In this document: positions 1 through 16,912 of the stretch, in pieces
How positions within the stretch are numbered: the first letter of the stretch is position 1
Layout of the letters: every line of letters begins with the position of its first letter
Notes under the pieces: generated by a model
What the model saw: only the letters and a program-made list of their open reading frames with translations
The model's database searches: none
Told to the model about the DNA's origin: nothing
IMG/VR virus record: IMGVR_UViG_3300029473_000215
Direction: 5' to 3' (one strand)
DNA length: 17,382 nucleotides
Source: a virus
Lineage: Duplodnaviria; Heunggongvirae; Uroviricota; Caudoviricetes
Program-made: the position numbers and the translations under genes

Positions 1-1338
1 ATGCGTCAGAGAGAGCTTGCAGCCACCGCTAAGGCCTTCATGTTGGATAGGCCTGAAGTCTCACTACAGGAGCTTACAGAGCATCTCCGGTCTATGGCTG
101 AGCAGTTCCTGACAGACGCTAGTGACGATTACTGGAATGGACTTGAGGTCGCTACTTTGGTCGACGAGAAGTCCAACCTGAGGGAGCTAGCCGCTACGCA
201 AGCATTGAGTCTGGACCAGCAGAAGGGCATAAGGTTAGCGCTTGAAGTCCTGACCGCAGCACAGCAGAGGGTAGACACTGGTGATACCTCTGGTCTGATT
301 GATATTGTGATGAATAACCCTACGGATTACTCAACTATAGGCGACTCTACGTCAATTCTGAAGAATGAGCAGGGGGGTAGACCAGCAGTTTTCACACAGG
401 AGCGCCAACCTGAGGTCGCTATCTGTAGTTTTTCTGAGCTTGTGTCCTCGCTGCTGGCTGAGAAGGTCCAGACCCTGAAGTCCTCCAGCTACAAGGACCT
501 GTCGTCCTCACTGAATACCGTCTCTCGGTTCTTACCTGAAAACATGGACCTGATGTCCCGCTCTGAGTGGCTGGCTGTCAGGGACTCCATGCTGGCTGCT
601 GAGGTGAGACCATCGACAATCAACAAGCTGCTGACTAAAGCGAAGATGTGTCTTGATTACGGTCTGATGAATGGACAGCTTGAGGGCCGCAACCCTATTG
701 AACGGATGAAGCTGACCAAGGATATCGACTCCAAGCGCAGGGCGTTCACAGACGAGGAGCTGGAGAGACTTCTGGTCCGTGTTGAGTCTGAGTATCAGTT
801 CACACGACACACGGCTCACACGACCTCTGAGGCCCGTAGATGGGCGTCTCTGGTGTCTGTGGTCACTGGCGCTCGGTCTGCTGAGGTCTGCCACCTGACT
901 AAACGTGACATTGTAACCTTGGACAATGGGCTGGTCTGTATCGACATCAATGAAGATGGGGACGGGAAGTCTGTGAAGAACAAACATTCAGTCCGACTTG
1001 TGCCGTTGACCGATGGGGCCTGTGGTCTTGACCTGAAGTCCTTCCTCGAATGGGTAGACATGCAGCCTGACGAGGGTCCTCTCTTCGGGATGACTCCAAG
1101 CGCATACTCTAGCTGGTTTAACTCAAGGGTCATGACTGAAGCTCTGGGAGACGCTACGGATGTCTCTCTCCACAGTCTGAGGCACTGGCTAGCGACCAGA
1201 ATGAAAGAGCGTGGAGTCAATCTGGTGGACGCTCAGGGCATCTTAGGTCACAGCAGTCAGTCCATTACGTATGACCTGTACGGGAAAGGACATGCAGTCC
1301 AGAGACTCGCAGATGCATTGGCTGTGACGTTTGGTTAA
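1..1338 (+). CDS. Tyrosine-type site-specific recombinase (phage integrase family), 445 aa
   Basis: C-terminal catalytic motifs visible in translation: TGARSAEV (box I Arg), HSLRHW (His-x-x-Arg), LGHSSQSITYDLYGKG (conserved His and catalytic Tyr). ATG sits at window position 1, so the true N-terminus could lie upstream. Confidence 0.7.
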   Translation: MRQRELAATAKAFMLDRPEVSLQELTEHLRSMAEQFLTDASDDYWNGLEVATLVDEKSNLRELAATQALSLDQQKGIRLALEVLTAAQQRVDTGDTSGLIDIVMNNPTDYSTIGDSTSILKNEQGGRPAVFTQERQPEVAICSFSELVSSLLAEKVQTLKSSSYKDLSSSLNTVSRFLPENMDLMSRSEWLAVRDSMLAAEVRPSTINKLLTKAKMCLDYGLMNGQLEGRNPIERMKLTKDIDSKRRAFTDEELERLLVRVESEYQFTRHTAHTTSEARRWASLVSVVTGARSAEVCHLTKRDIVTLDNGLVCIDINEDGDGKSVKNKHSVRLVPLTDGACGLDLKSFLEWVDMQPDEGPLFGMTPSAYSSWFNSRVMTEALGDATDVSLHSLRHWLATRMKERGVNLVDAQGILGHSSQSITYDLYGKGHAVQRLADALAVTFG

Positions 1339-1487: not shown

Positions 1488-2222
1488 ATGGGCCGACCAG
1501 CCAAGCCACTAGACCGAATCAAACTGTACGACCATTACACCTTTGACCCAACCATTCCTCAGCTACTCCGAGTCAAGACACCTTACGGCCAATCTAAACG
1601 CGCCACAGGAGAGCCTGTTAGCTTCTATGTGCATCAAAATGGCTATGCCTCTGTCTCTGTACTGGGTAAGCGCTATCGTCGCTCCAGAGTCATCTACAGC
1701 CTGTGTAAGGGTCACATCCCTGAGGGAATGTTCGTTGACCATATCGACGGTAACCGACTCAATGACCATCCTGACAACCTGCGCCTAGTTACACCACAGC
1801 AGAACCAGTGGAACAGAGACAACCTTGGAGGCAAACTTCAGAACTATTTGCCGAAAGGGATTGACTTTGTAAAAGCTGAGGGTCGCTACAGAGCGCGTAT
1901 TAAGATAGACGGCAAGGTCCGGGCGAGACTCTCTTATGAGGTCAGGGAGCTTATGGTCTGGCTACAGGAACAGCGTCAGAAGCTACACGGTGAATTCGCC
2001 TACGATGGGTGGACCGACTGGACAGAGGCAGACCAGAAGCGAGCTGACGAGCGCTACGAGGTGTCCAAGCCTGAAGGGTATAAACCAAGGAAGCGACGTT
2101 TACCCGGCTACGCTAAGACGCATGATGGACTGAAAGTCTACATTGAGCCTAAAACTGGGCGTCTCTACTTTAAGAAGCTGAACAAGAAGCACTACATCGA
2201 CGAAGAGTCTGTGGTGGTTTGA
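1488..2222 (+). CDS. HNH homing endonuclease with AP2-like DNA-binding domain, 244 aa
   Basis: HNH motif VDHIDGNRLNDHPDNLRLVTPQQNQWN; downstream AP2-like segment GIDFVKAEGRYRARIKIDGKVRARLSYE; GGAGG SD (1475-1479) 8 nt before the ATG. Confidence 0.75.
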   Translation: MGRPAKPLDRIKLYDHYTFDPTIPQLLRVKTPYGQSKRATGEPVSFYVHQNGYASVSVLGKRYRRSRVIYSLCKGHIPEGMFVDHIDGNRLNDHPDNLRLVTPQQNQWNRDNLGGKLQNYLPKGIDFVKAEGRYRARIKIDGKVRARLSYEVRELMVWLQEQRQKLHGEFAYDGWTDWTEADQKRADERYEVSKPEGYKPRKRRLPGYAKTHDGLKVYIEPKTGRLYFKKLNKKHYIDEESVVV

Positions 2223-2418: not shown

Positions 2419-2504
2419 ATTATTATCTTCTTATGAAGATTAATATAAGACCTATAGTCCAGACTTAAGTCAGACCTCATTCCTTCTATGTGTCTTCCTC
2501 AACC

Positions 2505-2780
2505 ATGGGGTCGACGATAGCTCCGTCAGTCTCCAGCTCAAAGCATCGGGACCCTGTATACATTGGGTCGTTGCTTGGGCTTCCACCTGCTAAGGAGCCG
2601 GGTCAGTGGCGTAGCTCTCTAAAAGACAAGCTCGTTAAAGATGCAATTTTGCATGTTTTAGCAGGACGCTCCGGTGGTTCGACTCCGGGTCGGCATTCAG
2701 ATTGGCAAAGTAGAAGACACCGAGTCGACACAGTACAAGCGTTTTGCTCAGACCAAAGTTGGAAAGCTACTGAGGAATAG
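2505..2780 (+). pseudogene. Partial duplicate of the KilA-N gene 5' region (KilA-N N-terminal motif fragment); may be a remnant or a small paralog
   Basis: Translation ...PPAKEPGQWRSSLKDKLVKDAILHVLAGRSGGSTPG... matches ...PSAKEPGQWRSSVRTLLDQDANLHVAHGGSTPG... of the 3011-3769 protein. Shares an exact 26-nt block (ctgctaaggagccgggtcagtggcgt) and a 17-nt block (ggtggttcgactccggg); no similarity downstream. Confidence 0.3.
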
Positions 2781-3010: not shown

Positions 3011-3769
3011 ATGTCAACTCAACCCTTAATGAAGCATGAAGTAGTTCTTCCGGTCATCGTTGACGGCTATCACTGGGCCTGTAATCAGGACCGTATGTGG
3101 AACCTGAACGAGCTACATAAAGAGCTTGAGCTTCCATCTGCTAAGGAGCCGGGTCAGTGGCGTTCTAGCGTCAGGACGCTTCTTGACCAAGATGCAAATT
3201 TGCATGTTGCTCATGGTGGTTCGACTCCGGGGACATGGGCTACTGAAGAGGCGGCTATTGCCTATGCGATGTGGGTCTCACCTGATTTCTACCTTAAGGT
3301 CATCCGTGCTTTCATCGCTTTACGTAACGACAAAGTGTCGGAAGCTAAGGCGCTGGCGCAGGACTCCAAGGAACTTAAGGGTCTCAAGCCTATAGCCCGT
3401 AACTGGCTGGAAAAGCTGGATAACCCGAAGCAGGGCCACACCCTGACAGAGTGTCTTAAGAATCTCGACTTCAGGTTAGGTACAAAGCTGGTATCAGCCA
3501 AGGCTCTTAATGCCGTATTGAAGTCAGGGCGTATAGCTAATCCCTTCTATAGTCGCAAGCTGGACGGTCGAGGACAGCCTGTATTTGACATCTCATCAGG
3601 TGGCTGGATGACCAGCTTCAATCCTAAGGGTCTGGAGAACGGCTATTACCGTCTTCAGGATAACCACTATAACGGTCAGGAGGGGCTTAAGGTCCTCACC
3701 AAGGGTTACGAGTGGCTTAAGTCCAACAAGGTCGAGCTGGTTCGTCTGTGCGCTAAGGGAGGACTCTAA
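3011..3769 (+). CDS. KilA-N domain protein, 252 aa
   Basis: KilA-N/APSES-like signature ...HGGSTPGTWATEEAAIAYAMWVSPDFYLKVIRAF; SD aaaaggag 10 nt upstream of the ATG. Confidence 0.7.
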   Translation: MSTQPLMKHEVVLPVIVDGYHWACNQDRMWNLNELHKELELPSAKEPGQWRSSVRTLLDQDANLHVAHGGSTPGTWATEEAAIAYAMWVSPDFYLKVIRAFIALRNDKVSEAKALAQDSKELKGLKPIARNWLEKLDNPKQGHTLTECLKNLDFRLGTKLVSAKALNAVLKSGRIANPFYSRKLDGRGQPVFDISSGGWMTSFNPKGLENGYYRLQDNHYNGQEGLKVLTKGYEWLKSNKVELVRLCAKGGL

Positions 3770-3770
3770 G

Positions 3771-3944
3771 ATGATTGACCCGCGCACACCTGAGGGCCGC
3801 ATGACTCTCCGTTACCGTGGCTATCGGACTGAAGTCCTCCTCAGAGAGCTTGGTCTAGACCCGGAAGATGAGACCCGCCAGCACCAATCCCGAGACGAGC
3901 TAATAGCCCAACTGGTCGCTATGAAACTGTCGCTAGCAAGCTAG
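3771..3944 (+). CDS. Small hypothetical protein, 57 aa (below the ORF-track length cutoff)
   Basis: ATG one nucleotide after the KilA-N stop (TAAgATG); GGAGG at 3758-3762, 8 nt upstream; uninterrupted frame to TAG at 3942-3944; translation MIDPRTPEGRMTLRYRGYRTEVLLRELGLDPEDETRQHQSRDELIAQLVAMKLSLAS. Confidence 0.45.
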   Translation: MIDPRTPEGRMTLRYRGYRTEVLLRELGLDPEDETRQHQSRDELIAQLVAMKLSLAS

Positions 3945-4081: not shown

Positions 4082-4573
4082 ATGTTATTCAACAACAACG
4101 ACTGGAAACTGTCAGTCACCGACATCAATCTCTACGAGAATACTGTGAGTCTGGACGGTCAGTCCTATCCGTTGTCGCTCGCTATCAAGACCCTCATTCC
4201 GGGCTACCTGTCCGGCCTGCCAGCCACCAGCCGTGAGTCTATGGAGCTACTGGAAGCTCTGGCTGAAGCTGGCGTGACCATTGGTAACTTCTTCAGTAAT
4301 GACCTGATGACCGCCTACCAACGCCGCCAGATGAATAAGCGTGTCGAGGCTGAGCGTATCGCTAAAGAGCTGGCGTCTCAGAAAGAGCGTACCCGCGAAA
4401 TGTTCATGACCGAAGACGAATGGCAGAAAGAGTTACAACGCCGCGAACAGGTCAAAGCTGAACGCCGGACCTATGGTGAGAACCTCCGCAGCGCTACCCA
4501 TTCCGCTGGTCGTTCCCGTGCCGCTATTGTCGCTGACCTTGAGTCAGGCGGTAACTGGCTGGACAGCCTGTAA
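4082..4573 (+). CDS. Hypothetical protein, 163 aa, with charged, probably helical C-terminal half (scaffold-like is a guess)
   Basis: AGGAG SD upstream of the ATG; C-terminal region rich in E/R/K/Q heptad-like runs (RRQMNKRVEAERIAKELASQKERTREMF...QKELQRREQVKAERR). No family recognised. Confidence 0.6.
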   Translation: MLFNNNDWKLSVTDINLYENTVSLDGQSYPLSLAIKTLIPGYLSGLPATSRESMELLEALAEAGVTIGNFFSNDLMTAYQRRQMNKRVEAERIAKELASQKERTREMFMTEDEWQKELQRREQVKAERRTYGENLRSATHSAGRSRAAIVADLESGGNWLDSL

Positions 4574-4641
4574 GACTCACAAGTGGTCCTGACCTGATGT
4601 CGGGACCCACGTATCTAAACTAATTTAGGAGATTGATTATT

Positions 4642-5628
4642 ATGACTATGACTAAAGACAGCTATCAGTTCGGCATTGAGCCAGTACGTATCACCGACAC
4701 CGACAACATTCAGGTCAATGAAGGTCTGCCGACTAACGCTGACCCACAGGTCTATGCCCTCCAGTTAGCTAAGACGGTTAAGGCTATGCTGAACGGTGTA
4801 CTTAAAGACGCTCAGGATAACATTCCGTTCCCTGTAGAAGTCCTGCCTACCCGCAATAGCCTGCCTACCCCAATCATCGCCCACACTCTGTCTGACCGCT
4901 CTGTGGTCGTCCCTGTACGCGGTGGTGAGCGACCTGAAGTCGTGACCGCTCCGTCTGGTCAGGAGATTGTGGTAGAGCCTATTGAGCAAGCTATCCTTGT
5001 GTCTCACCAGACCAAGCTATGGGACGTCAAGTCTTCCACTGGTTTCACTCAGGGTACGCTCCAGCAGGACGCTATGAACATCTGTGAGAATGTGGTCCGT
5101 ACCATCAACGCTCGCATGGTTGACGTTCTGGAGTCCTCCAAGCTGCTGAAGACTGTAGAGCTGCCAGTCCTGACTGGAAGCCTGACCACTAAGGCAGACG
5201 CTATCATGGACGCTCTGTACGAGAACACCGAGCCTTCCTTTGGTTCTGAGGTTACTGATTACGGTATCATCGCCCATGAGTCACACCTCAAGGCTCTCTC
5301 CCGTCTGGCTGCTAAGCAGGGCTTCGGTGGTGAAGACGCTATCGTGGATATGCTGGGTACCGACATCGCGTATTACAACGGTGAGGACAAAGGTGTGTTC
5401 ATGCTGGCTAAACGCTTCACGGCCCTGAGCTTCGGCTGCTTCCGTCACGACGGTGAGAATATTACGGTCGTCCTTTCACGTGATGGCGACTCTCAGTCCC
5501 ATGACCTTGAGATTCTCGGTAAAGTGTTCGTTGTCGCTGAAGCTGCTACGACCATCAAGATGGGCACTGGCTCAGCTACTGCCGTCCTGCCTGTAGTCAA
5601 ACGCCTGAGTTTCACTAAGACAAGCTAA
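4642..5628 (+). CDS. Hypothetical protein, 328 aa (possibly structural; unrecognised)
   Basis: Long ORF with AGGAG at 4627-4631, 10 nt before ATG 4642 (the ORF track starts at an upstream TTG, 4633); followed by a strong intrinsic terminator. No motif recognised. Confidence 0.65.
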   Translation: MTMTKDSYQFGIEPVRITDTDNIQVNEGLPTNADPQVYALQLAKTVKAMLNGVLKDAQDNIPFPVEVLPTRNSLPTPIIAHTLSDRSVVVPVRGGERPEVVTAPSGQEIVVEPIEQAILVSHQTKLWDVKSSTGFTQGTLQQDAMNICENVVRTINARMVDVLESSKLLKTVELPVLTGSLTTKADAIMDALYENTEPSFGSEVTDYGIIAHESHLKALSRLAAKQGFGGEDAIVDMLGTDIAYYNGEDKGVFMLAKRFTALSFGCFRHDGENITVVLSRDGDSQSHDLEILGKVFVVAEAATTIKMGTGSATAVLPVVKRLSFTKTS

Positions 5629-5647
5629 CTAACAATAACGACTTATT

Positions 5648-5686
5648 GGTCAGACTTCCGTAACTGGATGTCTGGCCTTTATTTTG
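5648..5686 (+). terminator. Rho-independent terminator after the 328-aa gene
   Basis: GGTCAGAC (5648-5655) pairs with GTCTGGCC (5670-5677) with one G-U pair, inner TCC/GGA pairs, followed by TTTATTTTG. Confidence 0.5.
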
Positions 5687-5728: not shown

Positions 5729-5839
5729 ATGGACCTACACAAAGTCTATCTCGTAGTCTTCCTGCTAAAGCTAGCTCTGGTAGTCGTGCTGATGGTCTGG
5801 CCTAAAGTACGATGGTTTCTGACAGAAAAATGTGAATGA
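5729..5839 (+). CDS. Small hydrophobic peptide, 36 aa, predicted single transmembrane helix (below ORF-track cutoff)
   Basis: GAGGAGGA SD (5717-5724) 5 nt before ATG 5729; translation MDLHKVYLVVFLLKLALVVVLMVWPKVRWFLTEKCE; stop TGA at 5837-5839. Confidence 0.4.
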   Translation: MDLHKVYLVVFLLKLALVVVLMVWPKVRWFLTEKCE

Positions 5840-5982: not shown

Positions 5983-7440
5983 TCAATGCAGGACCTCAGG
6001 CCTACTAAGGGTCCGCTTCAAGTCCTTGAAGTTCCAGATGAACTTAATGGGCACATCCAGTTTATCTTTGCCCCGGACGCCGTCGCGGATTGCCGTCATT
6101 TTGGGGCCATGATCGATAGCATCTGTCCAGCTGAAGCAGGAAATTGACGTTTTGACCGGATTATCCAGCACCGGCAGGCGCTCTATGGTAATGGTATAGG
6201 TCGATTCACGCGCGCCACTATTTCCGCCGCTGATGCCGACATTGCCCGTCAGAATAGGCAACATAGCAATAGCGCGTGCGGTCAGCTCGCCGTTTGCCTG
6301 GCGTTGTGGCCCCCAGCCCTGGCAGGTATAAGCGGGTTTTGCTGTGCCAATTTCACGCGCCAGTTTGATGATACGGTCCACCGGGATACCGGTAATTTGC
6401 GAAGCCCACTGCGGCGTTTTCGCTGTTTTATCGTCACCTTCACCAAGAATATAGGCTTTATAGTGACCATTTTTGGGTGCATCTGCGGGTAAGGTTTTTT
6501 CGTCATAGCCGACGCAGTATTTATCGAGAAAAGGTTGATCAACGAGATTTTCGTTAATCAATACCCAGGCAATACCCGCAACCAGCGCGGCATCGGTGCC
6601 CGGGCGAATAGGAAGCCATTCATCTTCACGACCAGCAGCCGTATCGGTATATCGCGGATCGATAACAATCATTTTGGCGTTCGATTTCTCGCGCGCTTTT
6701 TCAAGAAGATAAGTGATGCCACCGCCGCTCATGCGGGTTTCTGCCGGGTTGTTACCAAACATCACGACCAGCTTGCTGTTTTCAATATCCGTGGTGCTGT
6801 TGCCATCATTACTGCCGTAGGTGTAGGGCATGGCACAGGAAATTTGCGCAGTGCTGTAGGAGCCATACTGGTTGAGTGAACCGCCGTAGCAGTTCATCAG
6901 GCGTTTGACCGCCGAGGCTGATGGCGAAGAGCGGGTCATATTGCCGCCAACAATCCCCGAAGAGTACTGAATATATACAGCCTCATTGCCATATTGTTCG
7001 ACGGTTTTTTTCAGACTACTGGCGATAGTATCCAGGGCTTCATCCCAGCTAATCCGTTCGAATTTGCCTTCACCGCGTTTACCCACGCGTTTCATTGGGT
7101 AATTCAAGCGATCGGGATGATTAATACGCCGGCGGATGGAGCGACCGCGCAAACAGGCGCGTACTTGATGATTGCCATACTCGTCGTTGCCGGTGTTGTC
7201 AGTTTCCACCCAGATCACTTCATTATCTTTAACATGTAGACGAAGTGCACAGCGGCTACCACAGTTGACGGAACAGGCACCCCAGACCACTTTCTCGCTG
7301 GCCTGTTGTACCGCTGCCGCTGCACTGCGTAGGGTGAACGGTAAAGAAAAACCGCCTGCAGCCAGCGCCAGAGAACCTATCGCGGTAGATTTAACGAGTG
7401 TTCTGCGGCTGATGCCCACCATTCGTTCATTTTTGGACAT
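5983..7440 (-). pseudogene. ynfE: 3'-truncated ynfE (DmsA-family molybdopterin oxidoreductase, Tat-secreted): about 470 native codons plus a 15-codon foreign tail
   Basis: N-terminus MSKNERMVGISRRTLVKSTAIGSLALAAG (twin-arginine signal) and body match E. coli YnfE/DmsA from memory. Homology ends after ...DVPIKFIWN (codon at 6033-6031), then FKDLKRTLSRPEVLH-stop from island DNA. Full-length protein is about 800 aa. Confidence 0.85.
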
Positions 7441-8051: not shown

Positions 8052-8762
8052 GTGAAATACAAATTACTACCATGCTTACTCGCGATATTCCTCACAGGAT
8101 GTGACCGCACAGAGGTAACACTTTCATTTACCCCTGAGATGGCCAGTTTCTCTAATGAATTCGATTTTGATCCGCTGCGTGGTCCGGTAAAAGATTTCAC
8201 TCAGACATTAATGGATGAGCAAGGTGAAGTGACGAAACGTGTTTCTGGGACTTTGTCGGAAGAAGGCTGTTTTGATTCACTCGAATTACTGGATCTGGAA
8301 AATAATACCGTGGTCGCTCTGGTACTGGACGCCAATTATTACCGTGATGCCGAGACGCTGGAGAAGAGAGTACGTTTACAGGGAAAATGCCAGCTAGCAG
8401 AATTACCTTCTGCCGGGGTGAGTTGGGAAACCGATGATAATGGCTTCGTGATTAAAGCCAGCAGCAAACAAATGCAGATGGAATATCGCTATGATGATCA
8501 GGGTTATCCGCTGGGTAAAACCACGAAAAGTAACGACAAAACATTATCTGTCAGCGCCACGCCATCAACGGATCCGATCAAAAAATTAGATTACACAGCG
8601 GTTACTTTACTGAATAATCAACGGGTTGGTAATGTAAAACAGAGCTGTGAATATGACAGTCACGCTAATCCGGTGGACTGTCAGCTAATCATTGTTGATG
8701 AAGGAGTAAAACCCGCCGTCGAACGGGTTTACACCATCAAAAATACGATCGATTATTATTAA
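8052..8762 (+). CDS. ynfC: YnfC, UPF0257 lipoprotein
   Basis: GTG start giving MKYKLLPCLLAIFLTGC (lipobox LTGC); matches E. coli YnfC from memory; the ORF-track start at 8016 is an upstream extension. Confidence 0.85.
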   Translation: MKYKLLPCLLAIFLTGCDRTEVTLSFTPEMASFSNEFDFDPLRGPVKDFTQTLMDEQGEVTKRVSGTLSEEGCFDSLELLDLENNTVVALVLDANYYRDAETLEKRVRLQGKCQLAELPSAGVSWETDDNGFVIKASSKQMQMEYRYDDQGYPLGKTTKSNDKTLSVSATPSTDPIKKLDYTAVTLLNNQRVGNVKQSCEYDSHANPVDCQLIIVDEGVKPAVERVYTIKNTIDYY

Positions 8763-8764
8763 TG

Positions 8765-9325
8765 CTATTGTGCGGTCGGCTTCAGGAGAGTCTGACCCGG
8801 TGTTTTGTGCTCTGCCAGATACTGATGCTGGAATATACACATGCGAATGGCATTACGATATTGACCATTAATAAAGAACTCGTGCATCAATTCACCTTCA
8901 ACCGAAAAGCCAAGCTTGCGGTAAATGTGAATCGCTTTTTCATTCTCTTTATCAACGATCAGATACAGCTTATAGAGATTGAGAACGGTAAAGCCATAGT
9001 CCATTGCTAATTTGGCGGCACGGGTTGCCAGACCTTTCCCCTGATACTCCGGGGAGATAATTATCTGAAATTCTGCGCGGCGATGAACATGGTTAATTTC
9101 CACCAGCTCCACCAGACCGGCTTTTTCGCCGTCACATTCCACCACAAAGCGCCGTTCGCTCTGATCGTGAATATGCTTATCATACAGATCAGAGAGTTCA
9201 ACAAAGGCTTCGTAGGGTTCCTCAAACCAGTAACGCATCACACTGGCGTTATTGTCGAGTTGATGTACATAGCGTAAATCTTCACGCTCCAGCGGGCGTA
9301 GCTTAACACTGTGGGCGCTTGGCAT
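8765..9325 (-). CDS. speG: Spermidine N1-acetyltransferase SpeG (GNAT family), 186 aa
   Basis: Translation [26 protein letters not shown]... matches E. coli SpeG from memory. Confidence 0.95.
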
Positions 9326-11593: not shown

Positions 11594-12613
11594 ATGAAAA
11601 GCATATTAATTGAAAAACCGAATCAACTGGCGATTGTCGAACGTGAAATACCCACCCCGTCAGCGGGTGAAGTACGAGTAAAAGTGAAACTTGCCGGAAT
11701 TTGTGGTTCAGATAGCCATATTTATCGTGGGCATAATCCTTTTGCGAAATATCCGCGCGTCATTGGTCATGAATTCTTTGGCGTCATTGATGCAGTGGGT
11801 GAAGGCGTGGAAAGCGCCAGAGTCGGTGAACGTGTTGCTGTCGATCCGGTGGTCAGCTGTGGGCATTGCTATCCGTGCTCTATAGGTAAACCGAACGTTT
11901 GTACGACACTGGCTGTATTAGGTGTGCACGCTGACGGTGGTTTCAGTGAATATGCCGTGGTTCCGGCAAAAAATGCGTGGAAAATTCCTGAAGCAGTGGC
12001 CGATCAATATGCGGTAATGATCGAACCTTTTACCATTGCGGCTAACGTAACCGGACATGGTCAACCGACTGAAAATGATACCGTTCTGGTTTATGGTGCC
12101 GGTCCAATCGGCCTGACGATCGTTCAGGTATTAAAAGGCGTCTATAACGTTAAAAATGTGATTGTTGCCGATCGCATTGATGAACGACTGGAAAAAGCGA
12201 AAGAGAGCGGGGCTGACTGGGCGATTAATAACAGCCAGACACCGCTTGGCGAGATTTTCACTGAAAAAGGCATCAAGCCGACATTAATTATCGATGCGGC
12301 TTGTCATCCTTCTATCCTGAAAGAGGCCGTAACGCTGGCTTCTCCAGCGGCACGTATTGTATTGATGGGGTTCTCCAGTGAACCGTCTGAAGTGATTCAG
12401 CAAGGAATTACCGGAAAAGAACTCTCTATTTTCTCTTCACGCTTAAATGCAAATAAATTCCCGATCGTTATCGACTGGTTAAGTAAAGGGTTAATTAAAC
12501 CAGAAAAATTAATTACCCATACGTTTGATTTCCAGCATGTTGCTGATGCCATTAGTTTATTTGAACAGGATCAAAAACATTGCTGCAAAGTCTTACTCAC
12601 TTTTTCTGAATAA
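11594..12613 (+). CDS. rspB: Starvation-sensing protein RspB (Zn-dependent alcohol dehydrogenase family), 339 aa
   Basis: Translation MKSILIEKPNQLAIVEREIPTPSAGEVRVKVKLAGICGSDSHIY... with Zn-ligand motifs GHEFFG and CGHCYPC; AAGGAG SD; 11-nt gap after rspA (operon). Confidence 0.93.
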   Translation: MKSILIEKPNQLAIVEREIPTPSAGEVRVKVKLAGICGSDSHIYRGHNPFAKYPRVIGHEFFGVIDAVGEGVESARVGERVAVDPVVSCGHCYPCSIGKPNVCTTLAVLGVHADGGFSEYAVVPAKNAWKIPEAVADQYAVMIEPFTIAANVTGHGQPTENDTVLVYGAGPIGLTIVQVLKGVYNVKNVIVADRIDERLEKAKESGADWAINNSQTPLGEIFTEKGIKPTLIIDAACHPSILKEAVTLASPAARIVLMGFSSEPSEVIQQGITGKELSIFSSRLNANKFPIVIDWLSKGLIKPEKLITHTFDFQHVADAISLFEQDQKHCCKVLLTFSE

Positions 12614-12801: not shown

Positions 12802-14082
12802 TTAATTTTTCATTGCTTCGTTATGGGGCATGGTTGGGGCAAACTCGCTTAACTGTGTATTTAACAAAGCTACCTGTGCATTATTGTTTTCAGACATCCA
12901 TTTTCCGTATACCTGAAATACCATTTGCGCATCTGCATGGCCCATCTGGTTTGCTATAAATGCCGGGTTAGCACCAGCTGTCAGCGACCAGCAGGCATAA
13001 GTATGTCTCGACTGATATGATTTTCGATGGCGGAGTCCGGCACGTTTTATCGCTGCGTCCCACATCTGCCTTATTGAGTCAACGGTAAAATGGTCACCAT
13101 AATTTTTTACTCCCGCTGACACTTCAGGTTGAAAAACAAAGGTGCATTTTTGTTTTTCTGTTCTGCCATACTCTCTGAGGTGAACATCAATGATATGCTC
13201 TTTGCTCAGTCTCGTTAATGTCATCTGACTCCGGAGAGCGTCGATTGCTGGCTTAATAAGATGAATGACCCGATTGGTTCCCGCCTGTGTTTTTGGTACC
13301 GTGAAACGGTCTTTTGCTAAATTTCTCCTGATCATCATTGTTCCATTTTTCAGATCTATGTCCTCCCATCCAAGTGCACACAGCTCACCAGGGCGAACGC
13401 CAGTATAAACAGAAACACACCATAAATTTTTTGCTTGCTGATTTCTGCACGCATCGATAAGACGGATAAATTCCTCCCGCGAAAGAGGATCCGGAATGGT
13501 TCTTGATTCCTTTAATGGCGAGATCCCCTTAAACGGATTATCTGGCAGGTAACCGTTATCAACACCAAACTGGAACACGGCGTTAAGATTTGTCATGTAA
13601 TTATTTACAGTTACAGCCGATCTTCCTGGTTGTGTAACAATATAGTTACTTTTGGGGATCTGGTATCCAGTCAGTAGCTCTTTACGAACCTCCAGTAATT
13701 TTTCTTTATTAATCGATGAGGCAAGATTTTTTTCACCGATTATGCTCAGGATATTTTTGATGACGGCACGGTATGTGTTGAGTGATGTTTTGGCGACTTC
13801 AGTTTCTTTCAGTGCCAGAAATTTTTCAGCCAGTTCTTTTATGGTTAAATCTTGTCGGGCCTCACCAAATTTTTCCAGATTGCGTGAGGAGGGAAACTGT
13901 TTTGCATAGTCGAAAACACCAGTTTTTATTGCGTAACAAACAGAGGAGCGTAGTTCACCTGCAACGCGCCTGTTTTTTGCTGTGTCAGGAACCCCCAGAT
14001 TTTCCCTGACTCTTACGCCTTTATAGACAAACCAGATACGTAATTTCCCTCCATGGTTTTCCACGCCTGTCGGATATTTCAT
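12802..14082 (-). CDS. Lambdoid phage integrase (tyrosine recombinase with N-terminal arm-binding domain), about 426 aa
   Basis: N-terminus MKYPTGVENHGGKLRIWFVYKGVRVRE resembles Rac IntR-type arm-binding domains; C-terminus carries RHRKSYQSRHTYAC...GHADAQMVFQVYGKW. Start chosen at 14082; an alternative ATG is at 14097. Confidence 0.9.
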   Translation of the reverse strand: MKYPTGVENHGGKLRIWFVYKGVRVRENLGVPDTAKNRRVAGELRSSVCYAIKTGVFDYAKQFPSSRNLEKFGEARQDLTIKELAEKFLALKETEVAKTSLNTYRAVIKNILSIIGEKNLASSINKEKLLEVRKELLTGYQIPKSNYIVTQPGRSAVTVNNYMTNLNAVFQFGVDNGYLPDNPFKGISPLKESRTIPDPLSREEFIRLIDACRNQQAKNLWCVSVYTGVRPGELCALGWEDIDLKNGTMMIRRNLAKDRFTVPKTQAGTNRVIHLIKPAIDALRSQMTLTRLSKEHIIDVHLREYGRTEKQKCTFVFQPEVSAGVKNYGDHFTVDSIRQMWDAAIKRAGLRHRKSYQSRHTYACWSLTAGANPAFIANQMGHADAQMVFQVYGKWMSENNNAQVALLNTQLSEFAPTMPHNEAMKN

Positions 14083-14116
14083 TTCAACTTCTCTCATTAG
14101 TTAGTGTGGCTTTTAG

Positions 14117-14440: not shown

Positions 14441-16912
14441 TTAAGAATCAGCCTGACTCGGGATCAGTTTTTGCCAGATAACTGAAACGTATTTTGCCTG
14501 GTAACGGGCGTCGTCAAGTGCATTATGGCGCTCACCTTCGAATGGAATAGCCGTTCTGGCATCGAAGTCTATGGCTTTCCCCAGCTCAACGATTGTGCGT
14601 ACATCGCGATCGTTGTAGTAACGCCACGGGCAGGGGATCCCCTGCCGTTCGTATGAACGGCGCAAAATCGTGTTGTCGAAGTTGGCTCCATTTCCCCAAA
14701 CCTGAACAAAAAATTCACCGGAGTTTTCGTCGATAAATTCCCGCAATTGTAACAGTGCATCATCTAACGGGATTTCATCGGTCATAATGGCAGATTGCGC
14801 TTCGCGTGATTGCTTAAGCCACCATTTAATGGTGTCCCGATCAATGACTCCGCCAGCAGTTTCCAGATCGATAGTCTTACTAAATTCCGGTCCCATATCT
14901 CCGGTTTGCGGATCGAAAAATATTGCACCTATTGAGATGATCGGGGCATCAGGATTTTTTCCCATGGTTTCAAGGTCGATCATTAGATGGTCACACGTCC
15001 TGCTGGTGGATGTGATTTCGTGATGACCGTTCACCTTAATTGGGTGATCTGCCGTCTCGCCAGTTTCATTATCGCTATTGTGATGCTGATTGCCGCCAGT
15101 GTTCTCCTTGTGTGGATGTTCAGCGCCTTCCATTTCCTCCGGATCATCTTCCTGAACTTCAACCTGATACTCTTCATCGAATGTTTCTTGGTATGTTGCG
15201 TCGCCCATCACCGCGCCACAATCAGGGCAGTTGCCGCCGCCGGTCTGACCGCAGGCGGTGCAGACTTTTTCCACTTCCTGTTGCGCCACTGGTTCAGGCT
15301 GTTTCGTTTCTGGCTCGTTTTGTAACGCATTTGGACTGTTTTGTTCCGCTTTTTGGTAGTTCCGTTCCGATTCATGCTGGTTCTGGTTCACAGAATCGCG
15401 GGTCTGGATCCCCTTAACCCATTTCGGATCATTCGGGTCACTAATCCCTTCAACAAATTCACCACGTGATGCAGCAAGCAACTTATCGGCGTCAGGCTGG
15501 CTGATATTGGCTGCCTGCATAATTTTGTTTACTTCGTCAGCGGTAACTTTTATCGGCTCTGGTTGTTCTGAATCTTCAGCGGTATCTACATTTTGCGGTA
15601 AGCCCGTGTATGTGCCATTTTTTCGGGCAAAATATTCTTCTTTTGTGATTTCAGTGGCGCCAGCAGCCAGTGCCTTATCCAGACCAGAAAGTTTGTTTGC
15701 GCGACCGTATTTTTCTCCGTCCTTATCTGCGAAGAGGAAATAGAACGGCCCCTCACGCTCTACAGATGGTTCAGCTTCCGGCGCGGTTTCATTTTTTGGG
15801 ATATCAGATACCTCAGTTTCCACTGTATCAGTTTGTGTTTCTGATGACTGGAGAACATCAACAGTGCCCAGGTCTGTTTCTTCATTCTCAAACACGCCCT
15901 TTGTCGTCAGGTATTCGCAGATATATTTGTTCAGTGCTACGGGATCTTTGTGAATGTCGATCGGACGCTCACGGACAAGGCCAAAAATAGTTTGGCGGTC
16001 GTAGCGAAGGGCATCAGGCTGTTTGCGCATTGATGCCGAGATACGCTTCCAGTCTTCGCGGTCGTTGTCGATAACTTCTTTTTTTGCCCAGCGATGGATG
16101 CTGCCGTCAATGTTTCCGGCATCCACATCACCAGGCCAGAGAGCGTAGGCCAGTTCGTCATCCAGTGTTTTCCATGTCTGCTTGTATTCGCGATGAATGG
16201 CAGCAATGACCGGGCTGATTTTTCCTGTTGAATTTTCAGTGTACTGTTGATTGGCTCTGGCGCGGGCGAGATCAACAACAGACGTGTATTTTCCGGTTTC
16301 CTTGCGTTCACCTTCGCGACGTTTTTTCCAGATGCGCATCTCTGCCTGAATTTCGGGCCATTTAGCACCAGGAATACATTTATGCTTAACCCACCCAATG
16401 GCGTGCAACTTAAGCTCCGGATACATGGCGTTAACTTCTGGCATTTTCATCAACGCTTCAACGATATGTCCGTCGAATGTTGCCATGTCTTCCTGCAACA
16501 ATTCCTGTGCGCTAATAACCATATCAACGGTGATGTTTTCACATGTGTCGAACTTAACCATGACAGCGTTCTGTACTTCAGGGGCCAGCTTGTCAAAAGT
16601 GACGTTCATCGGATCGGATTCAGTCTCAACCGGGACAAAAGAAGCAGACTCCTCATCCCAGCGGTTTTCCTGCATATATTCAGCATCCCATGAATCGAGG
16701 GCAGGGCGGGGTATGCCAGGTTTATCCTCGCAGACAATAAATTTATAAGCGCAGTCCTGAGCAGCCGGATAATGTTCCAGGAATTGCCAGTGAAATTTTG
16801 CTCGAGCACGGCGTTCGTCGCCAGCTTCAATGGCTGTGGCTACAGCCACAGCGCCTTCTTCCCTTGTTGCCAGTTCGTCAGGAATAGCGGCGCAAATAAA
16901 GACTTTACTCAT
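14441..16912 (-). CDS. Exodeoxyribonuclease VIII-like protein with C-terminal DnaQ-like (DEDDh) 3'-5' exonuclease domain, 823 aa
   Basis: Central segment KLLAASRGEFVEGISDPNDPKWVKGIQTRD and Cys4 cluster CTACGQTGGGNCPDCGAVMGDATYQETF match RecE from memory; C-terminus has DEDDh motifs MIDLETMG, WGNGANFDNTIL and HNALDDARYQ instead of the RecE PD-(D/E)xK nuclease; GAGG SD upstream of the ATG. Confidence 0.85.
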   Translation of the reverse strand: MSKVFICAAIPDELATREEGAVAVATAIEAGDERRARAKFHWQFLEHYPAAQDCAYKFIVCEDKPGIPRPALDSWDAEYMQENRWDEESASFVPVETESDPMNVTFDKLAPEVQNAVMVKFDTCENITVDMVISAQELLQEDMATFDGHIVEALMKMPEVNAMYPELKLHAIGWVKHKCIPGAKWPEIQAEMRIWKKRREGERKETGKYTSVVDLARARANQQYTENSTGKISPVIAAIHREYKQTWKTLDDELAYALWPGDVDAGNIDGSIHRWAKKEVIDNDREDWKRISASMRKQPDALRYDRQTIFGLVRERPIDIHKDPVALNKYICEYLTTKGVFENEETDLGTVDVLQSSETQTDTVETEVSDIPKNETAPEAEPSVEREGPFYFLFADKDGEKYGRANKLSGLDKALAAGATEITKEEYFARKNGTYTGLPQNVDTAEDSEQPEPIKVTADEVNKIMQAANISQPDADKLLAASRGEFVEGISDPNDPKWVKGIQTRDSVNQNQHESERNYQKAEQNSPNALQNEPETKQPEPVAQQEVEKVCTACGQTGGGNCPDCGAVMGDATYQETFDEEYQVEVQEDDPEEMEGAEHPHKENTGGNQHHNSDNETGETADHPIKVNGHHEITSTSRTCDHLMIDLETMGKNPDAPIISIGAIFFDPQTGDMGPEFSKTIDLETAGGVIDRDTIKWWLKQSREAQSAIMTDEIPLDDALLQLREFIDENSGEFFVQVWGNGANFDNTILRRSYERQGIPCPWRYYNDRDVRTIVELGKAIDFDARTAIPFEGERHNALDDARYQAKYVSVIWQKLIPSQADS

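Follow-up and report, generated by a model that had tools for sequence, protein, structure and literature searches.

We analyzed a pair of adjacent genes at positions 4,082 to 5,686 of a 17,382-nucleotide (nt) stretch of DNA from the IMG/VR virus record IMGVR_UViG_3300029473_000215 (hereafter, the window). The window is E. coli-type chromosome, and its positions 1 to ~6044 make up most of a ~6.6-kb island that interrupts the gene ynfE. The pair belongs to this island and encodes a 163-amino-acid (aa) protein and a 328-aa protein; it is well supported, by structure prediction and fold searches, that the 328-aa protein has the HK97 fold of phage major capsid proteins. We consider it probable that the island represents either a new minimal variant of capsid-encoding satellite or a capsid-based defense, tied in both cases to virulent phages of the T7 family. 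The more specific reading that we favor over its rivals, that the pair is the structural module of a minimal satellite of T7-like phages that has a shell of its own and is induced by the RNA polymerase of its helper, is in our judgment evenly balanced between right and wrong. Based on the match of its promoters, the helper type of the island in this window is probably Kayfunavirus, the K1F-like group of Autographiviridae.

The 328-aa protein (positions 4642 to 5628, plus strand) yielded zero matches in Pfam, PHROGs, NCBIfam, and PADLOC, and it matched no curated capsid family in either the Pfam phage-coat clan or the PHROG head family. A word-indexed protein search recovered only close relatives of at least 69% identity, all in Enterobacterales, and a first structure prediction from 12 close homologues had a predicted local distance difference test (pLDDT) score of 37. 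An exhaustive profile search with a hidden Markov model (HMM) against 1.84 billion representative sequences returned 66 matches, approximately 35 of them full-length, with 20 to 42% identity. Given the resulting deep alignment, AlphaFold2 produced a model with a pLDDT of 81.8 and a predicted template modeling (pTM) score of 0.75. A confident model was obtained because the exhaustive HMM search alone provided enough sequence diversity.

The model consists of a disordered N-terminal arm, a long beta hairpin (residues 99 to 127), a 28-residue helix (residues 137 to 164), an alpha/beta domain, and C-terminal strands. We checked it for the hallmarks of the HK97 fold and found the N-arm, the E-loop hairpin, the P-domain with its long spine helix, and the A-domain. 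Foldseek returned 219 matches in the PDB at an E value of ≤1e-3, and the best 50 of these 219 were all capsid proteins or encapsulins; the PDB matches include the capsids of T5, phi29, Kp9, and HRP29. A fold search of BFVD returned 212 matches, the top ones being major capsid proteins. Across three fold searches, the results were concordant, with phage major capsid proteins or encapsulins as the top matches and no enzyme among them. A sequence-only reading of this stretch, made before our analysis, had guessed that the 328-aa protein is capsid-like, and the predicted fold bears out this guess.

The similarity to capsid proteins lies in the fold. A profile of the family did not match any sequence in the PDB, and 36 family members had no match in Pfam, PHROGs, or NCBIfam except for appended immunoglobulin-like (Ig-like) domains. 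These C-terminal domains (Big_2, He_PIG, and PKD) occur in the distant family members P0170, P0172, and P0174, and such Ig-like C-terminal domains are typical of virion proteins, in particular surface-exposed ones. When P0170 was compared to the INPHARED phage genomes, the matches were confined to its Ig domain. We detected no sequence kinship between the 328-aa protein and T7 gp10A (hhalign probability 0.1), and comparison with the proteins of phage ST31, including its capsid protein, gave no matches.

The first gene of the pair (positions 4082 to 4573, plus strand) encodes a protein with an N-terminal domain, a charged segment at residues 76 to 135, and a conserved C-terminal tail. Residues 76 to 135 are 45% K/R/D/E compared to 16% for residues 1 to 75, in agreement with the highly charged C-terminal half that had been described from the letters. 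We found 123 detectable homologues with 55 to 96% identity, hosted by E. coli, Salmonella, Enterobacter, Citrobacter, Yersinia, Serratia, Kluyvera, and Photorhabdus, and in the family alignment the N-terminal domain and the tail (GRSRAAIVADL..NWMDSL) are conserved, the charged part between them less so. The protein itself had no match in Pfam, PHROGs, NCBIfam, or PADLOC. A profile of 15 family sequences matched 5eur_A in the PDB (E = 2e-9, residues 15 to 133), which is a 136-aa "uncharacterized protein." This protein is SF216 of Shigella flexneri, reportedly described as a trimer by Kim et al. in FEBS Lett in 2017. The Pfam family PF22318 (DUF6971) is below threshold for the 163-aa protein alone, and it is matched by the corresponding partner proteins of a Klebsiella island (1.2e-36) and of the GC-rich 7-kb element L013 (0.005). 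These profile comparisons suggest that the 163-aa protein, in its N-terminal domain, is distantly related to PDB 5eur and to Pfam DUF6971. Its role may be that of a scaffold, as guessed from the letters, but equally that of a decoration protein (possibly trimeric) or of cargo, and we detected no sequence kinship with the T7 scaffold gp9 (BLASTP E = 0.64).

Two distant elements place relatives of both proteins side by side. In Klebsiella pneumoniae ATCC 13883, a DUF6971 gene directly precedes a gene for a 402-aa protein that belongs to the capsid-fold family (hhalign probability 100, E = 1.6e-57). In L013, the partner has 134 aa and 28% identity to the 163-aa protein, and it adjoins a 422-aa member of the capsid-fold family with a Big_2 domain. 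These pairs indicate that the two genes have stayed linked in elements well outside E. coli. In every related element at which we looked, down to 24 to 28% identity, the pair has been kept together, and these elements span E. coli, Klebsiella, and a GC-rich host.

Both genes of the pair begin with ATG and are preceded by an AGGAG ribosome-binding site, located 8 nt before the start of the 163-aa gene. For the 328-aa gene, we used the ATG at 4642, as in its homologues; the program-made list of open reading frames (ORFs) has a TTG at 4633. The ratio of nonsynonymous to synonymous substitution rates (dN/dS), calculated against seven orthologous pairs, ranged from 0.09 to 0.38 for the 163-aa gene and from 0.07 to 0.19 for the 328-aa gene. 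Both genes are under purifying selection, and both ORFs are therefore real, constrained genes. Given that they lie on one strand with a spacing of 68 nt and no terminator in between, we infer that they are co-transcribed. We considered an intergenic hairpin at 4583 to 4610 as an RNase III-like site and found no statistical support for it, as its stability is not significant (z = -1.9).

Downstream of the 328-aa gene, a terminator on the plus strand consists of a GC-rich hairpin (GGUCAGAC...GUCUGGCC) at 5648 to 5677 and UUUAUUUU at 5678 to 5685. A 72-nt stretch containing it has a fold energy of -24.2 kcal/mol (z = -5.3), and 0 of 200 shuffled sequences were as stable. The T7 terminator Tphi, folded identically, reached a comparable -24.9 kcal/mol. 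A simple terminator scan missed the site at 5648 to 5685 because its loop limit is 8 nt. The sequence-only reading had listed a 163-aa ORF, a 328-aa ORF, and a hairpin with a U-tract, all of which are present where it placed them, and had called the terminator strong, a description that the comparison with Tphi upholds. It had also remarked that no portal, protease, or terminase is nearby; accordingly, no such family is matched by any ORF of the island, and none adjoins the 328-aa gene in the island or its sister islands. As for its proposal to look at co-occurrence of the two genes across homologous elements, the pair was together in all those examined.

Promoter sequences connect the island to T7-family phages. 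We built a position weight matrix (PWM) from 10 promoters of phage ST31, all of which are on the coding strand, and genuine sites score 32.9 to 36.8 bits with this matrix. In the window, it detected two Kayfunavirus-type (T7-family) RNA polymerase promoters on the plus strand: CTAAACTATCACTGTAGGGACTT at 1364 to 1386 (31.1 bits) and a second, slightly degenerate site, CTAAATTATCAGTATAGGGAAAA, at 2286 to 2308 (26.4 bits). The next-best site in the window scored 9.0 bits and the best of 200 shuffles 16.7. The two promoters are 922 nt apart with a gene for an HNH endonuclease in between, and all genes of the island lie on the plus strand, which is the promoter strand. The 17-mer AACTATCACTRTAGGGA occurs in several copies per genome in ~40-kb genomes of Kayfunavirus phages, including ST31, vB_EcoP_F, TM1, and ZG49. 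Kayfunavirus genomes also contain the best phage relatives of the HNH endonuclease, which are encoded by HNH genes close to the right genome end and have 48 to 50% identity. We found no gene for a phage-type RNA polymerase in the island or in its sister islands.

Related islands carry promoters of other T7-family types. In sister islands, two to four tandem sites lie within ~600 nt, with the Kayfunavirus type mixed with the T3-like ACCCTCACTATAGGGA. The island of K. pneumoniae ATCC 13883 (L084, positions 6061 to 6087) has an exact 23-nt T7 consensus promoter, TAATACGACTCACTATAGGGAGA, upstream of a Rha-like gene, the DUF6971 gene, and the gene for the 402-aa capsid-fold protein. In the GC-rich element, AAAAACCC[CT]CACTCTAAGG is repeated three or four times, and these repeats resemble the promoters of Pseudomonas phage gh-1.

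The primary origin of T7 consists of tandem promoters followed by an AT-rich region. In the island, an AT-rich tract at 2366 to 2450 (26% GC) with short direct repeats (TAAGACTCTAAGT-like) begins ~60 nt past the second promoter and contains the 80-nt segment with the lowest GC content in the island. By analogy with T7, the promoter and this tract may form a replication origin of the T7 type. A G-rich run, GGGGGGAGGGGGGG, is located at 2341 to 2354, between the second promoter and the AT-rich repeats.

To place the window island in its family, we compared it with related islands in sequenced genomes. Islands are present in 310 of 5426 complete E. coli genomes (~6%), always with both genes of the pair, and these islands have 80 to 95% nucleotide identity, most of them 80 to 90%. 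Islands also occur in Salmonella, Enterobacter, Citrobacter, Klebsiella, Yersinia, and Serratia. We observed two insertion sites: inside ynfE (the window, L001, L005, and L009) and next to a tRNA-Gly gene beside actS (L002, L003, and L004). The integrases associated with the two sites are only ~30% identical. The slot of the second gene is occupied by an HNH gene, a DUF4145 gene, or a gene for a 202-aa protein, and that of the third by a KilA-N gene, a Rha-family gene, or a gene for a 161-aa protein. The conserved core consists of a gene for a 57-aa protein, the pair, and a gene for a 36-aa peptide, around which the integrase, cargo, regulator, and promoter specificity have been swapped. Identities of the 163-aa and 328-aa genes to those of the window are 97% and 92% in L002 and 89% and 81% in L003, and these unequal values between islands indicate recombination within the capsid module. 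In L005, a 102-aa ORF lies on the opposite strand (8469 to 8777), with the small conserved gene on one side and the 163-aa gene on the other; this ORF is also found in L003, L010, L011, and L093, and none was called in the window.

From these features, we infer how promoter use, replication, shell assembly, packaging, and interference might proceed if the island is a satellite. It would lie dormant in the chromosome until a T7-family phage with a matching RNA polymerase infects the cell, and would then be transcribed. A transcript starting at 2286, probably joined by read-through from 1364, would cover the KilA-N, 57-aa, 163-aa, and 328-aa genes and would stop at the terminator at 5648 to 5685. 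The excised island would be copied by the replication proteins of the helper from the candidate origin formed by the promoter and AT-rich tract. The 328-aa protein, aided by the 163-aa protein, would assemble into the island's own shells, which would probably be smaller than the T=7 head of the helper, and island DNA would be packaged into them by means of the helper's portal, terminase, and tail. As an outcome, the island would spread and the yield of the helper would fall.

Several observations weigh against the satellite reading. Among the contigs examined, which include metagenome contigs of 6.4 to 7.8 kb, we found no excised, circular, or virion-borne island; these contigs are integrated copies or break at the attachment (att) sites or in flanking genes. 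Scans of IMG/VR with the window protein returned only chromosomal regions, and scans with its distant homologues had no matches. The island has no portal, terminase, or protease family and no recognizable packaging signal. A search of INPHARED found no phage DNA similarity beyond the promoters and none for the proteins of the pair. Because the shell is unrelated in sequence to the capsids of T7 and ST31, incorporation of a helper portal is unexplained. In addition, the degenerate second promoter and a KilA-N remnant suggest some decay of the copy in the window.

The main rival reading is an infection-triggered defense, which we regard as possible, if on the unlikely side. Here, the phage RNA polymerase would turn on portal-less shells or aberrant assemblies that trap or poison helper parts (scaffold, portal, terminase, or DNA), so that the infection aborts without packaging of the island, which would move by other means. 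Neither protein of the pair is matched by a PADLOC model, and poisoning by co-assembly is unlikely because the shell is unrelated in sequence to the candidate helper capsid. The islands, which have intact integrases but lack conjugation genes, have spread widely among genera, and such spread needs a vehicle. Defense and satellite lifestyles are not mutually exclusive. A version in which the shell itself is the weapon, with the 328-aa and 163-aa proteins forming a domesticated, portal-less, encapsulin-like compartment that captures phage parts or DNA and causes the infection to abort, strikes us as rather unlikely.

The encapsulins among the fold matches also raise the idea of a nanocompartment that serves host physiology, with the 328-aa protein as shell and the 163-aa protein as cargo, carried as a passenger on a mobile island. 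Against this, similarity to encapsulins is at the level of the fold only, with no match to a Pfam encapsulin or phage-coat family, and the 163-aa protein has neither a match to a known cargo enzyme family nor an obvious targeting peptide. Given phage-polymerase promoters and no polymerase gene, expression is expected only during infection, and the Ig-like C-terminal domains of the distant relatives are a virion trait. We therefore consider such a nanocompartment very unlikely. The lowest probability, marginal in our estimate, goes to a decaying remnant of a T7-like or other prophage, in which the pair would be leftover, non-functional head genes. The KilA-N remnant and degenerate second promoter of the window copy fit this idea, as do insertion sequence (IS) insertions in many island copies. 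However, the compact architecture of 6.5 to 7 kb with att repeats recurs across genera and integrases, both genes of the pair are under purifying selection, and no island protein resembles a T7 or ST31 protein except for the HNH motif. Three features make both the nanocompartment and the prophage remnant much less likely: the promoters, the compact architecture and its conservation, and the selection acting on the two genes of the pair.

The satellite reading can be set beside known systems, the closest of which may be a class of chromosomal islands. Chen and Schneider, in Nucleic Acids Res in 2006 (34:1133), reportedly described islands with tandem T7-like promoters in enterobacteria. These islands, found in E. 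coli, Shigella, Salmonella, and relatives, are said to be 4 to 13 kb in size, to combine an integrase with two or three promoters of the T7 family, and to lack a gene for RNA polymerase. Downstream of the promoters they reportedly carry a small number of uncharacterized "phage-related" genes, which are not known to have been given a function or fold. With an integrase, two promoters, and no polymerase gene, the island in the window fits this description. To the 2006 islands, our analysis adds the HK97 fold, the link to 5eur and DUF6971, the match to Kayfunavirus promoters, and the extension to Klebsiella and a GC-rich element.

The resemblance of the gene order to T7 genes 9-10 and Tphi, which had been drawn from the letters, holds in layout: in both, an assembly protein (a candidate one in the island), a capsid protein, and a strong terminator follow one another under a phage RNA polymerase (in the island, presumably so), and the island has T7-family promoters. 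It does not extend to sequence kinship, as neither gp9 nor gp10 has detectable similarity to the proteins of the pair, and gp9 has 307 aa compared to the 163 aa of the island partner. From family 1 encapsulins, the pair differs in having no family match, no cargo enzyme, a mobile island as its setting, and phage promoters.

Among satellites, the head module of cf-PICIs comprises a protease, a portal, connectors, and a small terminase. Like the island, cf-PICIs encode their own HK97-fold head protein, but they are larger and have a complete head and packaging module, whereas the island has only a shell protein and one partner. Unlike cf-PICIs, the island appears to be induced by the RNA polymerase of a virulent phage. 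According to bioRxiv 10.1101/2022.09.08.507074, cf-PICIs (e.g., EcCI2) encode all proteins needed for small capsids and DNA packaging and take only tails from the helper. PICMIs, which are satellites of virulent vibriophages, are tiny integrase-bearing elements with few genes, as is the island. According to PMC10803314, they have no capsid-remodeling genes and are packaged as concatemers into helper-size heads; by that account, the island encodes a shell protein of its own whereas PICMIs encode none, and dependence on a virulent helper, shown for PICMIs, is proposed for the island. Aguilar et al. (bioRxiv 10.1101/2025.06.18.659913) described mini temperate tailless HK97 entities from gut viromes, with an average size of 8.9 kb. 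Like the island, these entities have an integrase and only a capsid protein and a scaffold (in the island, a partner that may be one), with no portal, terminase, or tail, and their capsid proteins resemble encapsulins, as the shell protein of the island does. They differ in carrying RepA/helicase and sigma-factor genes and no phage promoters; in the island, the reverse holds.

Our literature search, conducted outside subscription journals, turned up neither a described satellite of T7-like phages nor a capsid fold assigned to islands of this class. The described satellite families (P4-like, PICI, cf-PICI, PLE, and PICMI) include none of strictly virulent T7-like phages. If the satellite reading is true, direct wiring to the helper RNA polymerase would make induction very simple, and no known capsid-encoding satellite would be as reduced as this element of ~6.6 kb, which has only a shell protein and one partner. 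The island would further offer a natural system for studying how an HK97-fold protein of foreign origin takes over the portal and packaging motor of another phage, and there would be an explanation for the islands noticed in 2006, to which apparently no function had been given. The islands occur in ~6% of the complete E. coli genomes and in numerous pathogens, and phage therapy and phage display make use of T7-like phages, K1F relatives among them, so interference by the islands could affect these applications in practice.

The remaining genes of the island in the window all lie upstream of the pair, except for the 36-aa peptide gene. A tyrosine integrase gene (positions 1 to 1338, plus strand; Pfam Phage_integrase 2.3e-14, PHROG 1 6.8e-43) is cut by the window edge, leaving the C-terminal 445 codons of a gene that encodes 526 aa in NZ_AP027639. 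It is followed by the HNH endonuclease gene in the variable cargo slot (1488 to 2222, plus strand; Pfam HNH_3 4.9e-15). The regulator slot holds a gene for a KilA-N domain protein (3011 to 3769, plus strand; Pfam KilA-N 1.3e-9; PHROG 129, transcriptional regulator). Upstream of it, a 96-aa ORF (2490 to 2780, plus strand), the translation of which resembles the KilA-N protein, is an N-terminal remnant or duplicate of the KilA-N gene. The duplication is visible as a 40-mer (2573 to 2612 versus 3124 to 3163, 95%) and a 20-mer (2638 to 2657 versus 3189 to 3208, 95%), and overall (2573 to 2700 versus 3124 to 3250) it resembles a scar left by recombination in the regulator slot.

The gene for the conserved 57-aa protein (3771 to 3944, plus strand) has no family match. 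In tblastn searches, this protein was found in islands of both integrase types and, weakly, in the Klebsiella island, and it belongs to the conserved core with the pair. Beyond the terminator, a gene at 5729 to 5839 (plus strand), preceded by a strong GAGGAGG ribosome-binding site, encodes the 36-aa, very hydrophobic peptide (MDLHKVYLVVFLLKLALVVVLMVWPKVRWFLTEKCE). It is in the same position in five related islands, and the peptide could be a membrane-active or lysis-related candidate. An Rfam scan of the window detected no RNA family.

The right att core of the island, GAAGTTCCAGATGAACT, is at 6028 to 6044, inside ynfE. The complete island in E. coli PSJ-29 (L001) is flanked by a 17-bp direct repeat, GTAGTTCCAGATGAACT, at 11674 and 18250. 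Among the features by which satellites are recognized, the island has an integrase, att repeats ~6.6 kb apart, and an incomplete set of virion genes. The gene ynfE, which encodes an A subunit of the dimethyl sulfoxide (DMSO)/selenate-reductase family, is split by the island and leaves a 485-aa remnant ORF in the window (5983 to 7440, minus strand). The end of this ORF is island-derived sequence, and RefSeq calls both halves pseudogenes in a sister strain. Further along, the chromosomal genes ynfD, ynfC, speG, ynfB, ynfA, rspA, and rspB are located at 7.6 to 12.6 kb. After rspB, there is a second, unrelated mobile region on the minus strand (12802 to 14097 and 14441 to 16912), which encodes a 431-aa integrase and an 823-aa protein. 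The C-terminus of the latter contains an Rv2179c-like 3'-5' exoribonuclease domain (2.4e-67) that follows a long acidic low-complexity region.

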